A DNA stretch of 64,000 bases. Source: Kiritimatiellia bacterium. GTDB taxonomy: Bacteria; Verrucomicrobiota; Kiritimatiellia; JAKQHR01. This document shows positions 46,391 to 55,646 of the stretch, in pieces. A model generated the notes under the pieces. That model saw nothing but the letters and a program-made list of their open reading frames with translations, was not told where the DNA came from and did no database searches. The DNA lies in assembly GCA_050178035.1 (NCBI GenBank), contig JBFXGK010000014.1, forward strand, positions 8,649-72,648. Direction: 5' to 3'. Position 1 is the first letter of the stretch; each line of letters opens with the position of its first letter. The position numbers and the translations under genes are program-made.

Positions 46391-46450
46391 AAGGGGGAAA
46401 ACTGGTAGAGGCGCAGGGACTCGAACCCTGGACCCGCTGATTAAGAGTCA
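46391..46450. repeat. attL-type direct repeat: duplicated 3' 48 nt of tRNA-Lys plus about 10 nt downstream.
   Basis: 46403-46450 is identical to 55571-55618. The flanking GGGGAAAACTGG matches GGGGAAAAACTGG. Confidence 0.85.
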
Positions 46451-46537
46451 ATAGCATACGTGCATTTAATGGGCTTTTTTTGATTGACTGTCTCAAAACT
46501 TGCTGTAATGTCCGGGGATATGTAGTCATATAAGGCA

Positions 46538-47899
46538 ATGGAACGCAATAGAGGAAAGGCGGCTAAAATGACACGGAAGCACCGGACCGGGAACTTATAC
46601 AGGCGGGGAAATGTTTGGTGGCTCAGGTACATGGTGGAGGGTAAAACCGTTTATGAATCCCTGCACTGCACCAGCCGGGATGATGCCGAGAAGGAGCGCA
46701 AGCGGATCATGCGCCCCTTGATGGCCGCCGACAAAGCCGACGTGCTGGCCAATATCTCAAAGCGACTGACCGACGCGAAGGACGAACAGGCCGCCGCCAA
46801 CGAGGAAGCCAATCCCCCGCTGGCAATCGCCGCCGCTTGGGATGCGTACTATGACAGCAAGAGCCGTCCCGATTCATCGGAGAGAACGCTGGCCGGATAT
46901 GAGAGCGCATGGAAAAGATTCAAGCGGTGGATCGAGAAGGAACACCCGGACATCAAACAGATGCGCGATGTTTCAAAGAACCTTGCCGCCGCTTACGCAA
47001 AAAAACTTGAAGCTGATGGAGTGACCGCCAGCACGTTCAACCAGCATATCGGGCTGATGCGTCTGGTATGGCGCACACTGGCAGAGGAGATTCGCGCAGG
47101 TTCAAACCCGTGGATGGACATGCGCCGGAAGAAACTCGGAGCGCAGAAGGTGGCGCACCGCCGCCGCAATCTGACACCTGAGCAATTTGATACCCTTCTA
47201 AAATGCGCTGGCAGTGCAGACATGCACGACCTTCTTTTTACTCTTGGATGGACTGGCCAGCGTCTCGCGGATATTGTTCTGTTGAAATGGAACTCAATAG
47301 ATTTCAAGCGTAAGGTTGTCACGATTCACCCGCTGAAATTGCGGCGCACAGGCAAGGAGGTTCATATTCCCCTGCTGCCACAGCTTGCGGATATTCTCAG
47401 AATGAGAAAGCGGAACGCCGCCGGGCCTCATGTGTTCCCCGAACTGGTGGAAGATTATCAGCGTGATCCGTCAGCACTGAGCAAGCGGATTGCCGCCGCC
47501 TTTGACAAGGCCGAACTGAACCCCCGCGAAAAACTGCCCGGAGTATCTAGGGCCGTTGTCGTTTATGGGGCGCATAGTCTGAGGCACTACTTCGCAACGC
47601 AAGCCCTTGCCGCAGGGATACCCTCCGAGATCGTGAAGCGAATCACCGGACACACCAGCGACACCATGCTTGCCAACTACGAGCATTTGGATGCGCGATT
47701 TATCGGAGAACTGGCGAACAAGCTACAGGCTCAACCACTGAACCCGCAGAAGCAAATCGCCGCACCGCCAGCGCATGAAGATAATCCCCTGCCCCCGTGG
47801 GCCGCGAAAATGATCGAGGGAATGACAGCAAAGAACTGGAAGAAAGTGAAAACCGAACTGCTCAAGATTCATGCGGAACCACAGGAGGCCGGACAATGA
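46538..47899 (+). CDS. int: Tyrosine site-specific integrase.
   Basis: C-terminal catalytic region HSLRHYFATQALAAGIP...ITGHTSDTMLANYEH (R, HxxR, Y). Confidence 0.85.
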   Translation: MERNRGKAAKMTRKHRTGNLYRRGNVWWLRYMVEGKTVYESLHCTSRDDAEKERKRIMRPLMAADKADVLANISKRLTDAKDEQAAANEEANPPLAIAAAWDAYYDSKSRPDSSERTLAGYESAWKRFKRWIEKEHPDIKQMRDVSKNLAAAYAKKLEADGVTASTFNQHIGLMRLVWRTLAEEIRAGSNPWMDMRRKKLGAQKVAHRRRNLTPEQFDTLLKCAGSADMHDLLFTLGWTGQRLADIVLLKWNSIDFKRKVVTIHPLKLRRTGKEVHIPLLPQLADILRMRKRNAAGPHVFPELVEDYQRDPSALSKRIAAAFDKAELNPREKLPGVSRAVVVYGAHSLRHYFATQALAAGIPSEIVKRITGHTSDTMLANYEHLDARFIGELANKLQAQPLNPQKQIAAPPAHEDNPLPPWAAKMIEGMTAKNWKKVKTELLKIHAEPQEAGQ

Positions 47900-48972
47900 A
47901 AAAGAAATCCTCACAGAACAAGAACCGCAAGCCCAAAAATATCAGCCTGTCTCTTGACTGCTTCGGGCTGTCAAACGCGGTGCATCCATATAGTGGAGAA
48001 GTTGGCGGGCAGGGAGAACAAGAGCGCATGAAGTGCAAGAAATGCGGCGGGCTGGCAATGTGGTACGGGGATGCAAATAACCCTGCCGCGCTGTATGTCA
48101 AATGCAAGAAATGCGGATGCCGCGAATATGATGTCGTGCCAAGAGAAGAGATTATTGATGATGGCGAAGGGGAGTTGAGAAAGCCACTGTCAAAAGCTGA
48201 TGCGAAGGCGGCGCGTGATGCCATATCGAAGGCAGAGGACAGCATGAGGGCGGCGCACAGCGTCTTGCTGAAATATGCCGGAAGCTCAGACTACGACATT
48301 GCCGCATATGCAATGCGCGTCCTGCTGAAAGAAACTCTTGCGCTTACTCAAAACGCGTCCGGTCTGTCTGGTGGAACAAATGCTGAGCTGGTGATGGCAA
48401 TCGCCGCGCAAAGTCATCATTGGCCTGTTATGGTGGGCATTCAACCCGAAAGCTGGAAGGCCGCAAGGAAACAAATCGAACGTATCGGACTTGGAACCAG
48501 AATCCCCATTGCTGAACAGTACCGCAACAAGAAAGCATTCAAACCTGATCGAGCCACAAACGCCATTGCATGGGAGATACTGCAAACAATTATAAAGACC
48601 CGCGCCGAGGTTCAGCAGTACGACCGGAACACCCTCAAGCATGGCCGCCTGAACGGCGAACCTGTGCCGGAATGGGTTTGCCTTTGTCGGGATCTGCCAG
48701 CACTGACACCCGATAAGAATATCCTGAAAGATTACCGCGATCTTGCCCGAAAGCACATTGCCACCATGAAAGCAAAAAGAGTTTCCAAGCATGAAACCGC
48801 TTTTGAGCTTCTTCTGCGAACCGCCGCCCCTGAATGGTTTGATTCCATTTGGGGCCGATGCACTGACGAGACAAGCCGGAAGAAAAGCAATCGCACTACT
48901 CGCGGCGCACTTCGTAAAAATGCCGAGGATGATATTCTGTCCGCACTGGTCACGATAGCAAAGAACCTTTGA
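47896..48972 (+). CDS. Hypothetical protein with an N-terminal C4 zinc ribbon. Translationally coupled to int (ATGA).
   Basis: CKKCGG...CKKCGC motif. No other recognisable domain. Confidence 0.4.
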   Translation: MKKKSSQNKNRKPKNISLSLDCFGLSNAVHPYSGEVGGQGEQERMKCKKCGGLAMWYGDANNPAALYVKCKKCGCREYDVVPREEIIDDGEGELRKPLSKADAKAARDAISKAEDSMRAAHSVLLKYAGSSDYDIAAYAMRVLLKETLALTQNASGLSGGTNAELVMAIAAQSHHWPVMVGIQPESWKAARKQIERIGLGTRIPIAEQYRNKKAFKPDRATNAIAWEILQTIIKTRAEVQQYDRNTLKHGRLNGEPVPEWVCLCRDLPALTPDKNILKDYRDLARKHIATMKAKRVSKHETAFELLLRTAAPEWFDSIWGRCTDETSRKKSNRTTRGALRKNAEDDILSALVTIAKNL

Positions 48973-49096
48973 CCCGTTTCCGCTGGTGAAAAAACAGGGG
49001 GCATTTTCACCCCTGCACCTCATTAGGACTTTTTGCGCCTATCCCATATTTTTCCCGCAGTGAGATTGTGAGTCTCAAAACACAGAAAGGGAAAAT

Positions 49097-54300: not shown

Positions 54301-55089
54301 CTATTGTGATATTAGACCCAGGAATAGAAAGAACAGCAAAATACCGCCGATGACCATTACCCCAAGACAAGAGCAGGATGAATTCTTGCTCCTATCGTCA
54401 CTCCCGGCAACTCCAGATTCTATTAGCTTTTCTCTGTATGCGAGAGCCTGTTCAATCATGCTGCTTGCTTGTCCTATCCCAAGAGTGGATAAGACTGTCT
54501 GATCTTTAAATCCAAGAGCGATCAGATAATCAATTTGTTTTTGCGTTGCAGGTCTTTCATTTGGTTCACGTTTAGGGCATTTCAATTTACGACTCAAATC
54601 AGGGGCATATTCGCCCTGTAGCTTTTCTTTCCGATAACCCCGATCAAGTTCTCCCATCTCCTTTAGATATGACGCCCTAATTAATGATGGAAAGAATTCT
54701 GTAATCACATCTTCAAGAAAATATTCATCCGCGCATAATTGTTCTGCATGTTCCTCGACATATTGAAAAATCTTCTTTTTCTTGGCCTCAGATATGTTCT
54801 TAACCACCTCATTGGCATATAGGTCGTAAAGGGAAGCTTCGTAGTCATTTTTGAAATCGACCACATATTTACTGACAGCGGGCTTACGGGTTTTCTCGAT
54901 TGCGGGTGGTTTCTTCGGTGCTTTCTTTTTGCGTGTTCTGGGTGAATCGGCATCAGGCTTCTGCTGTTCTGGAATACTAATAGACTGCTTGCACGTTGGG
55001 CATTCAATATATTCCCCCGCCATCTCCGGCGGCGCTTCTAGGGGCTGCTGGCAATGGGGACAACCAAAAGCAATATCAGTCATTCTCAT
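54301..55089 (-). CDS. Zinc-ribbon protein with a C-terminal TM anchor (cargo gene 1).
   Basis: FGCPHCQQPLEAPPEMAGEYIECPTCKQSISIP. C-terminal LGVMVIGGILLFFLFLGLI. Confidence 0.45.
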   Translation of the reverse strand: MRMTDIAFGCPHCQQPLEAPPEMAGEYIECPTCKQSISIPEQQKPDADSPRTRKKKAPKKPPAIEKTRKPAVSKYVVDFKNDYEASLYDLYANEVVKNISEAKKKKIFQYVEEHAEQLCADEYFLEDVITEFFPSLIRASYLKEMGELDRGYRKEKLQGEYAPDLSRKLKCPKREPNERPATQKQIDYLIALGFKDQTVLSTLGIGQASSMIEQALAYREKLIESGVAGSDDRSKNSSCSCLGVMVIGGILLFFLFLGLISQ

Positions 55090-55352
55090 TTCCTCCCGTA
55101 TGCGGCTTGCATGAAAAGGATGCTAGACCCGCCCCCATTATGCAGTCAAGCCGAACATTCAACGTGAAAGAGAGGACCGGGAATAGAATCCGCTCGTTGA
55201 CCCATCGAGAGAAACCGAAGAACTCCCCGAAGTAATGGTATGACCGCCCCCGCCCCGCTTTGTGTCAGGGATGGCCGAGACGGGCCGCCGTGACCGCCAG
55301 AAACGACAATCACCCCCAGAGAGGTATCAACACCCTACCCGCTCCCCGGCCT

Positions 55353-55452
55353 CATTTGGGACATCATTTGAGACACTGCCATACCCGCTGACTACACGCT
55401 GAATCTTTCGGACTGTCCTAAACTGTCTCAAATGTAAAAGGATTTTGAGACA
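55353..55452. promoter_or_regulatory. Cluster of four CATTTGRGACA motifs (three direct, one inverted), near attR. Candidate integrase arm-type sites or cargo-operon operator.
   Basis: Motif copies at 55353, 55365, 55424 (inverted) and 55442. The same motif (CTGTCTCAAAA) occurs at 46488-46498 near attL. Confidence 0.55.
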
Positions 55453-55570
55453 TATCCGCGAAAAGCCATTGAGAGCAAAAAAAGGCAACAAGGGCAAATG
55501 GCGATATTCGTTTGACTATTGCAAATATTGATCGAAATACAGTTTTTCCCACTGTGTTCATTGGGGAAAA

Positions 55571-55646
55571 ACTGGTAGAGGCGCAGGGACTCGAACCCTG
55601 GACCCGCTGATTAAGAGTCAGCTGCTCTACCAACTGAGCTACGCCT
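55571..55646 (-). tRNA. tRNA-Lys (anticodon CUU). Integration target.
   Basis: 76-nt cloverleaf with anticodon loop CTCTTAA. 3' 48 nt duplicated at 46403-46450. Confidence 0.8.

Follow-up and report, generated by a model that had tools for sequence, protein, structure and literature searches.

A probable PICI-like phage satellite integrated at a tRNA-Lys gene in a Kiritimatiellia bacterium

In Gram-negative phage-inducible chromosomal islands (PICIs), most genes read in one direction from the integrase gene (int). Satellite P4, of about 10 kb, combines tRNA-adjacent integration, int, an AlpA-type regulator and a primase with a helper-dependent capsid; it has a cos site and no small terminase gene (terS). 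The virion-encapsidated integrative mobile elements (VEIME) of marine viromes are grouped with PICI-like tycheposons as close systems. Here we analyze a 64-kb stretch of DNA (the window) from a Kiritimatiellia metagenome-assembled genome (MAG; run SRR27751817), whose host is represented by a single sample. A 9.1-kb segment of the window (the island) is probably an integrative PICI-like phage satellite, and we infer that it depends on a helper phage and is packaged by it. A sequence-only reading of the window had proposed such an architecture, and the calls on which it was built (int, a helix-turn-helix [HTH] protein, a PrimPol, an ERCC4 nuclease and a TerS-like protein) survived testing.

Five core components are recognized in PICIs: an integrase; alpA, merR or stl regulation; a primase-replicase; capsid morphogenesis or interference; and a small terminase (de Sousa et al. 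2023, PMC10085698). The capsid-morphogenesis/packaging-interference component is absent from PICIs of the Staphylococcus aureus pathogenicity island (SaPI) type (PMC10085698). PICI-like tycheposons are reported never to have been seen with extra cargo (Hackl et al., bioRxiv 10.1101/2020.12.28.424599). In the literature searched, most phage satellites come from Proteobacteria and Firmicutes, and marine candidates are a recent addition (PMC10085698; 10.1101/2020.12.28.424599); our search found nothing on phage satellites in Kiritimatiellia.

Boundaries and core genes of the island

A tRNA-Lys(CTT) gene was located by ARAGORN at 55573-55648 on the minus strand, and a repeat search, read directly, revealed a 58-nt direct repeat at 46393-46450 and 55563-55620 (98% identity, one mismatch, 9170 nt spacing). 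The repeat is made up of the 3' 48 nt of the tRNA gene and 10 nt downstream, and its single mismatch lies in these 10 nt (GGGGGAAAAC vs GGGGAAAAAC). Its left copy (attL, 46393-46450, minus strand) is the displaced one, while the right copy (attR, 55563-55620, minus strand) forms the 3' part of the intact tRNA gene; together they bracket an interior of ~9.1 kb (46451-55562). The sequence-only reading had recognized a tRNA-Lys-integrated element of this size with a 58-bp repeat that includes 48 nt of the tRNA, and these points hold, as does the left edge of the interior at 46451. Its right-hand coordinates need correction: in the right copy the tRNA-derived portion covers 55573-55620 rather than 55571-55618, the interior ends at 55562 rather than 55557, and the extra 10 nt differ by a mismatch and not by an indel.

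The interior holds eight plus-strand open reading frames (ORFs), a 584-bp gap and then three minus-strand ORFs, and the ORF list bears out the gene order first given from the attL side. GC content is highest in the host flanks (58%) and declines through the backbone (54%) and the gap (49%) to the cargo (46%); the gap had been described as 580 bp and AT-rich, and while a gap of about that length is present, it is hardly AT-rich. The motif TGTCTCAAA occurs four times in the window, always at the element ends, compared with 0.33 copies expected by chance, and none of 100 shuffles reached four copies. One copy lies beside attL and int (46489-46497, plus strand) and is a putative integrase arm-type site (P' arm); three lie beside attR (55367-55452; at 55367 on the minus, 55424 on the plus and 55444 on the minus strand) and are putative integrase/Xis arm sites (P arm). 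Judged by its placement, the motif is distributed as one would expect for arm sites of an integrase or Xis in an attP-int arrangement. A separate cluster of tRNA-Met, tRNA-Leu(TAG) and tRNA-Ala(GGC) genes is found at 34506-35467 on the minus strand, ~11 kb upstream of the island.

The first gene encodes a tyrosine integrase (46538-47899, plus strand; PF00589, 4.4e-18; phrog_1, 3.9e-45), as had been called; a Logan gene call starts at 46568, and NCBIfam yields only generic Xer-like matches below threshold. Further along lies the gene of a 91-aa HTH protein of excisionase/MerR type (49097-49372, plus strand), which matches phrog_66, ‘excisionase and transcriptional regulator’, at 3.9e-7. Its other matches are weak (MerR, 3e-5, and HTH_17, 1e-3, both under gathering scores; NCBIfam excise, 5e-3, below threshold) and Phage_AlpA is not matched, so that of the earlier AlpA/excisionase label the excisionase/MerR part is retained and the specific assignment to AlpA is dropped. 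A role as Xis or as an AlpA-like regulator is weakly supported, and the protein, which is 98% identical in a sister element, could be Xis only.

The replication protein is a PrimPol (49822-51081, plus strand) with matches to PF08800 (BT4734-like_N, formerly VirE_N; 2.4e-27), to PADLOC PrimPol (4e-31) and to NCBIfam PrimPol_Db (8e-16), in agreement with the VirE-N/primase-like annotation proposed from the sequence. An N-terminal archaeo-eukaryotic primase (AEP) PrimPol domain of BT4734/VirE_N type is followed by a C-terminal winged helix, and the residues D99/D101/H145 (DxD/H) are invariant. In the AlphaFold2 (AF2) model (predicted local distance difference test [pLDDT] score 80.6) an N-terminal alpha/beta domain is joined by a disordered linker (residues 195-238) to a helical C-terminal part that ends in the winged helix. 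The best PDB matches of the model, all of them weak (E about 0.02-0.1), are to MarR-type regulators, to the DNA-binding domains of plasmid RepA proteins and, for the N-terminus, to LigD polymerase. A helicase domain was not found by Pfam or in the AF2 model.

No structural phage gene was detected in any ORF of the interior (Pfam, PHROGs, NCBIfam), and tblastn of the TerL-like, portal and major capsid proteins (MCP) of phage contig L021 (see below) against the whole window returned nothing; the earlier argument that the segment is not a degraded prophage is upheld. Prophage ends likewise carry genes for integrase, excisionase, replication and TerS, and the integrases of the phage contigs L014-L020 are 25-27% identical to that of the island, as might be expected if the segment were what is left of a decayed temperate prophage, its left end without the structural genes. 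We regard this as extremely improbable, given that the two att copies are undamaged and separated by only 9.1 kb, that all ORFs are intact and tightly or translationally coupled, that the same compact layout recurs in 6-9 kb sister and cousin elements at four different tRNAs, and that not even fragments of structural genes were seen with Pfam and PHROGs.

In the search for an empty tRNA-Lys site, the flanking genes (encoding an aminotransferase and an 886-aa protein) were found in no sample but this one, and the contigs that carry them end at the repeat. A 9177-bp Logan contig (L003) was considered as a circular form of the island and set aside: it equals the unique interior plus 30 nt per side, and it is uninformative on excision because a k=31 graph yields such a contig for any 53-nt exact repeat. 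A scan of genome contigs recovered only distant primase relatives (at most 33% identical), and the whole island has no match among GenBank phages (megablast).

The TerS-like protein, candidate helper phages and a shared non-coding block

The evidence that links the island to phage packaging centers on a 204-aa TerS-like protein (51563-52177, plus strand), in which an HTH of Terminase_2 type at the N-terminus is followed by a C-terminal domain that is helical and conserved. While a word-indexed search found a single relative, an exhaustive HMMER search found 63. A family profile built from 47 relatives matches the PDB entry ‘Pam5 small terminase’ (E=3.7e-6) over the N-terminal HTH, and more weakly the SF6 small terminase and other small-terminase DNA-binding domains; in the literature ‘Pam5’ is found only as a phage cocktail, with nothing on the deposited terminase. 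With Pfam, 2 of the 47 relatives touch Terminase_2 (PF03592) at about 2e-3 and the window protein does not. The AF2 model is all-helical (pLDDT 88), and nine of its ten best matches in BFVD, as well as every named match, are ‘Terminase small subunit’ (E 3e-4 to 9e-3, over 140-180 columns).

The family hidden Markov model (HMM) also picks out a 115-aa protein in L061 (an Opitutaceae MAG) and a 122-aa protein in L041 (a Flavobacteriaceae MAG). Both are encoded just downstream of a BT4734-like primase and pass Terminase_2 (31.4 and 42.2 bits, respectively, vs 26.1), and hhalign of the TerS family with the L061 protein gives 94.7% probability (E=6e-8). Because of the profile, Pfam-on-relatives, fold and hhalign evidence, we read the N-terminal domain as being, by remote homology, a Terminase_2-type DNA-binding domain. 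The TerS-like call of the sequence-only reading is sustained by these comparisons, together with the position of a phage homologue near TerL-like, portal and capsid genes. A second domain, helical and conserved as well, is made up of the C-terminal ~100 residues; it contains a PDPxAV...GGLRF motif and matches no known family. Since standard terminase HMMs miss the TerS family, satellite finders built on them would overlook such elements.

Immediately upstream is the gene of an ERCC4/XPF-type structure-specific nuclease (51069-51566, plus strand; gene call from 51078), identified by PF02732 (1e-10; 42 bits vs a gathering score of 24), phrog_3490 (2e-19) and Hef/Xpf matches in NCBIfam. The signature GDxnERKx3D is intact, with ...EAGDYSL...IERKALSDL... 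in the translation, so the ERCC4 annotation stands. The gene is translationally coupled to terS here and in the sister elements described below, and it is absent from cousin islands. It had been singled out as an unusual component for such an element, and we concur: small ERCC4 homologues among GenBank phages are confined to haloarchaeal tailed viruses (Halorubrum, Haloarcula; 31-40% identity).

Run SRR27751817, the source of the window, also yielded the 15-kb contig L021, which encodes the closest homologue of the TerS-like protein (P0087, 50% identity). Here a 139-aa gene and the TerS-like gene are followed by a 774-bp stretch with no called gene, a small ribbon-helix-helix (RHH)-like ORF, a TerL-like gene in two ORFs, a portal gene and SU10_MCP. 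The portal matches SU10_portal at 4e-4, and its orthologue in L018 matches phrog_1216 at 1e-10. Unsplit TerL-like orthologues in L014 and L018 carry a Walker A motif (NESGKTS) and acidic motifs. A second contig, L106, comes from a Joint Genome Institute (JGI) metagenome series that also contains the sister satellites; its TerL-like, portal and MCP proteins are 81-90% identical to those of L021. Phages related to L021 and L106, with SU10-type portal and capsid genes, are the likely helpers. The link between L021 and the host is their co-occurrence in one sample and their tetranucleotide similarity (r=0.85). Searches of IMG/VR with the cis motif and the L021 capsid found nothing, and a search with a portal alignment found a single uncultivated virus genome (UViG; L110), related to L018 and belonging to the same phage group as L014-L020. 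tblastn of the TerS-like protein against GenBank phages gave no match.

The TerL-like gene is split in different frames, into an ATPase part and a nuclease part, in two independent assemblies (L021, 6924-8780; L106, 1461-3105), and is a single ORF in L014, L018 and L110; the split could reflect two polypeptides, a programmed frameshift or a small insertion.

Directly 3' of terS lies a conserved non-coding block (52174-52375). A stretch of about 190 nt that follows directly on the terS stop can be aligned among the island, the sister satellite L107 and the phage-type contigs L021, L106 and L104, with conserved stretches GATTATGCGAC, CCnnAAAAsCCCAAT, ACCCAC/CCACCG, GTGGG and GCCCTATGTGGT. In a leave-group-out nhmmer test over 1.49 Mb, a model from the three phage-type copies recovered L107 (3e-14) and window positions 52174-52239 (2.5e-4), and a model from the two satellite copies recovered L106 (7e-17), L021 (1.7e-9) and L104 (2.8e-5); nothing significant was found beyond these targets. 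Beyond the block the satellites have no gene in this orientation, and thus it is not kept there as a promoter for a downstream gene. We read the block as a candidate pac site; a terminator, operator or other regulatory region is possible.

As to structured RNA in the block or the gap, Rfam gave no match, and RNAalifold found a weak structure with no net covariation support. A GC hairpin (CCCCCGGAGGGGG, 52579-52591) between the convergent operons is, by consensus match only, a possible bidirectional terminator, and a sigma-70 promoter scan was uninformative (4 sites vs 7.5 expected).

Related islands and exchange of terS

Full-length PrimPol relatives, 37-88% identical, occur in small islands with the same int-HTH-PrimPol backbone. 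These include the L004 family (6.1 kb, tRNA-Arg, att repeat of 51 nt), the L010 family (6.9 kb, tRNA-Pro, 53 nt) and L061 (8.3 kb, tRNA-Asn, 74 nt), all of them with int beside the displaced piece of the tRNA gene and with the intact tRNA gene at the opposite end. In L061 a Terminase_2 terS follows the primase and the cargo is on the minus strand. With Terminase_2 genes after BT4734-like primases in both L061 and L041, the architecture is widespread in bacteria of the Planctomycetes-Verrucomicrobia-Chlamydiae (PVC) group and Bacteroidota.

Sister elements (L103, L105 and L107-L109) are closer still, with 87% nucleotide identity to the window from the gene of a 95-aa protein into the ERCC4 gene. 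Protein identity is 98% for Xis, 87.5% for PrimPol and 75% for ERCC4, and falls to only 41-42% for TerS; the region downstream is largely different and the cargo is unrelated. The sister terS allele is instead 98% identical at the nucleotide level to a copy in L102, a contig from the same metagenome (Ga0116143) as the sister satellite L108. L102 has no ERCC4 gene upstream and encodes the long phage-type TerS N-terminus, and its upstream sequence is shared with L104, which in turn overlaps the phage contig L106 at 84%. In phage contexts (P0087, L102, L104) TerS has a 45-65-aa Pro/Gln-rich N-terminal extension that both satellite versions lack; these share a short N-terminus of their own (MTTEKTT... 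/ MKPKTTE...). The satellites keep their own first ~15 terS codons; the remainder of the gene is exchanged. Satellites that change helpers by recombining with phages would be expected to leave such a pattern: the terS body, probably along with the adjacent block, seems to be traded with such phages, which would let satellite lineages change helpers. The exchange of terS alleles and the non-coding block common to phages strengthen the satellite reading.

Several observations weigh against this reading. The window protein has no terminase match in direct Pfam and PHROG scans, so that of the profile checks proposed for the primase-like and TerS-like proteins the former succeeded outright and the latter only through the deeper profile and fold comparisons; against the PDB (Foldseek) the model has no significant match, the best being E217 TerS at E=0.93. 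The TerL-like assignment is derived from the position upstream of a portal gene and from the Walker A and acidic motifs; Pfam, PHROG and PDB sequence searches with these 545-572-aa phage proteins were all negative. L021 is an incomplete contig, and L102 is assigned to a phage only indirectly, through the upstream sequence that it shares with L104 and the overlap of the latter with L106. No capsid-size or interference gene is recognizable in any ORF of the island (Pfam, PHROGs, NCBIfam). Neither an excised circle nor an empty site nor an encapsidated copy was observed, in a host known from one sample. Finally, distant TerS homologues (25-30% identity) in the temperate-phage contigs L014-L020 are encoded by the first gene of an operon with a methylase, a DnaD-like initiator and DnaB, ~5 kb upstream of and not adjacent to the TerL-like gene. 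It is mainly this operon position that makes a regulatory or replication role for the TerS-like protein possible.

Such a role would fit an alternative in which the island is a self-replicating integrative element (integrated-plasmid-like or a cargo-carrying tycheposon) that is not packaged by phages. The 204-aa HTH protein would then be a phage-borrowed regulator of transcription or replication, the block an operator, origin or terminator, and transfer would take a different route, for instance vesicles or transformation. In its favor, only the N-terminal HTH of the TerS-like protein matches terminases by sequence, and two blocks of the conserved region are mutually complementary, with a CCCAAAAA/TTTTTGGG hairpin that could be a terminator. 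In addition, alignments of the primase and TerS-like families found no relatives in IMG/VR, a collection that may lack the habitat or host. We nevertheless consider this alternative unlikely. Nearly all BFVD fold matches, which cover 140-180 columns, are to small terminases, the gene in L021 and L106 lies directly upstream of a packaging and head module, and in L061 and L041 the corresponding slot is taken by bona fide Terminase_2 proteins. Moreover, the swapping of terS alleles on a conserved backbone is a prediction of helper switching.

For the preferred reading, a helper-dependent satellite, we propose the following course of events. Upon infection by a helper phage, or upon its induction, the island would be excised by the integrase together with the HTH protein, probably via the TGTCTCAAA arm sites. 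The PrimPol with its winged helix would replicate it, using the helicase and polymerase of the host, and the ERCC4 nuclease may trim branched replication intermediates. The TerS-like protein would then bind the ~190-nt block just downstream of its own gene as a pac site and recruit the large terminase of the helper, leading to packaging of island DNA in helper capsids. A more elaborate version, which we regard as doubtful, is suggested by the translational coupling of the ERCC4 and terS genes here and in every sister element: the two proteins could form a satellite-encoded, TerL-independent unit for pac recognition and cleavage, in which ERCC4 would make the initiating cut at the block and the helper would supply motor and capsid. 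The terS body, probably with the cis block, would then be a portable module that SU10-type phages and PVC satellites trade with each other, with a change of helper as the result.

Some features of the related islands are recorded here in their own right. The L061 island (7779-16180 of CAZXHR010000002.1) is integrated at tRNA-Asn(GTT), encodes int, the BT4734-like primase, the 115-aa Terminase_2 protein and minus-strand cargo, and carries a 29-nt repeat (AAAAACCGGACAGTAACCGGACAGACAAA), one copy immediately inward of each att repeat, that probably represents arm sites. In the tRNA-Arg island of L004 (7162-7212 vs 13276-13326) the T-stem carries paired changes, CAGGGC...GCCTG... in the displaced copy vs CGCGGC...GCGCG in the functional one, which means that the island brought its tRNA end from a different host lineage. 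Two tandem DUF5681 genes (11371-12236) occupy the ERCC4/terS slot in the L004 family, with an internal 58-nt repeat common to both (81% identity). They were considered as relatives of the TerS-like protein and rejected, as neither BLASTp nor hhalign revealed any relation; one paper that mentions DUF5681 was uninformative. Beside another island of the primase family, L013 (86-5711) carries an McrBC-like / DUF2357-PDDEXK restriction cluster and a Vsr gene, which looks like a defence neighbourhood adjoining the integration site.

Accessory genes and comparison with known systems

Three further plus-strand genes belong to the backbone. The gene of a 358-aa protein with an N-terminal CxxC...CxxC zinc ribbon (ORF, 47896-48972) is translationally coupled to int; Pfam gives only a sub-threshold Lar-like zinc-ribbon match, and NCBIfam and PADLOC give none. 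Between the HTH and PrimPol genes are those of two small Cys-rich proteins without a significant family in Pfam, PHROGs, PADLOC or NCBIfam. The first (95 aa, 49369-49656) is 87% identical in the sister element and 31% identical in the L010 family. Its N-terminal ~45 aa are homologous to the product of a phage gene directly upstream of phage terS (L021, 4866-5004; 65-67% amino acid and 72% nucleotide identity). The second, a 63-aa zinc-finger protein (49653-49844), overlaps the start of PrimPol and is a conserved core gene of the element family (amino acid identity of 79% in the L004 family and of 57% in the L010 family); its conservation exceeds that of the primase (79% vs 57%).

Beyond the gap, the three minus-strand cargo genes span 52762-55089. 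Gene 1 (54301-55083; ORF and gene call) encodes a zinc ribbon and a C-terminal transmembrane helix (260 aa as called), gene 2 (53479-54240; ORF) a 253-aa protein with an N-terminal signal-peptide-like segment, and gene 3 (52762-53349; ORF and gene call) a zinc-ribbon and transmembrane protein (195 aa as called). None of the products has a significant family in Pfam, PHROGs, PADLOC or NCBIfam; gene 3 has sub-threshold zinc-ribbon matches only. An oppositely oriented three-gene cargo operon of lower GC had been described from the sequence, and that description is accurate; the accompanying suggestion of anti-phage cargo finds no backing, as PADLOC is negative and no defence function is recognizable. 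By its predicted features the cargo is a variable accessory module of membrane or secreted proteins. Its composition is distinct (46% GC; tetranucleotide correlation with the host poor, r=0.31), and in the sister element L107 this cargo is absent and replaced, as at satellite accessory hotspots. Both observations would also suit a segment that is primarily a defence or adaptation island, valued for its membrane or secreted cargo and using the phage-like genes for maintenance only. That view we judge very unlikely: no defence function is supported by PADLOC, Pfam, PHROGs or NCBIfam, terS and the common cis block are left unexplained, and the idea, being reconcilable with the satellite model, does not truly compete with it.

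If the satellite reading is true, the data provide a concrete pair of satellite and candidate helper in Kiritimatiellia, an uncultured PVC group, from a single metagenome, along with a testable candidate pac site and a natural replacement of terS alleles between sister satellites that bears on helper change.

Compared with PICIs, the island has an integrase, a primase, terS (by remote homology) and an accessory cargo region, and lacks structural genes, and its HTH protein is a weak match to a regulator of MerR/AlpA class or excisionase; as in Gram-negative PICIs it reads mostly in one direction from int, and as in SaPIs there is no gene of cpm, ppi or rpp type. It differs in that it replicates with a BT4734/VirE_N PrimPol, which has a winged helix but lacks a helicase, rather than with a Pri-Rep, its TerS is a divergent two-domain protein missed by standard HMMs, and an ERCC4 nuclease gene is coupled to terS. 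Its host phylum also lies outside the Proteobacteria, Firmicutes and some Actinobacteria named in PMC10085698. Its TerS resembles Terminase_2 small terminases (PF03592; SF6 G1P, PaP3/E217 TerS) in having an N-terminal HTH followed by long helices, whereas its C-terminal domain does not match known TerS oligomerization cores.

With P4 the island shares tRNA-adjacent integration, int, a primase, a size of ~10 kb, possibly an AlpA-type regulator and probably the need for a helper capsid, but no psu, sid, delta, epsilon or alpha primase-helicase gene is present (Pfam, PHROGs, NCBIfam); it is neither P4-like nor a prophage remnant. The PICI-like tycheposons of Prochlorococcus and other marine bacteria (10.1101/2020.12.28.424599), with which we group VEIME, resemble it in integration at a tRNA 3' end with a partial tRNA repeat, in having a tyrosine recombinase, xis, a VirE-type primase and terS as the sole packaging gene, and in the modular swapping of parts, which is seen across the island family as well. 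In contrast to what is reported for these tycheposons, the island combines terS with a cargo operon. Overall, the island represents a known, PICI-like architecture in a new phylum and not a new principle.

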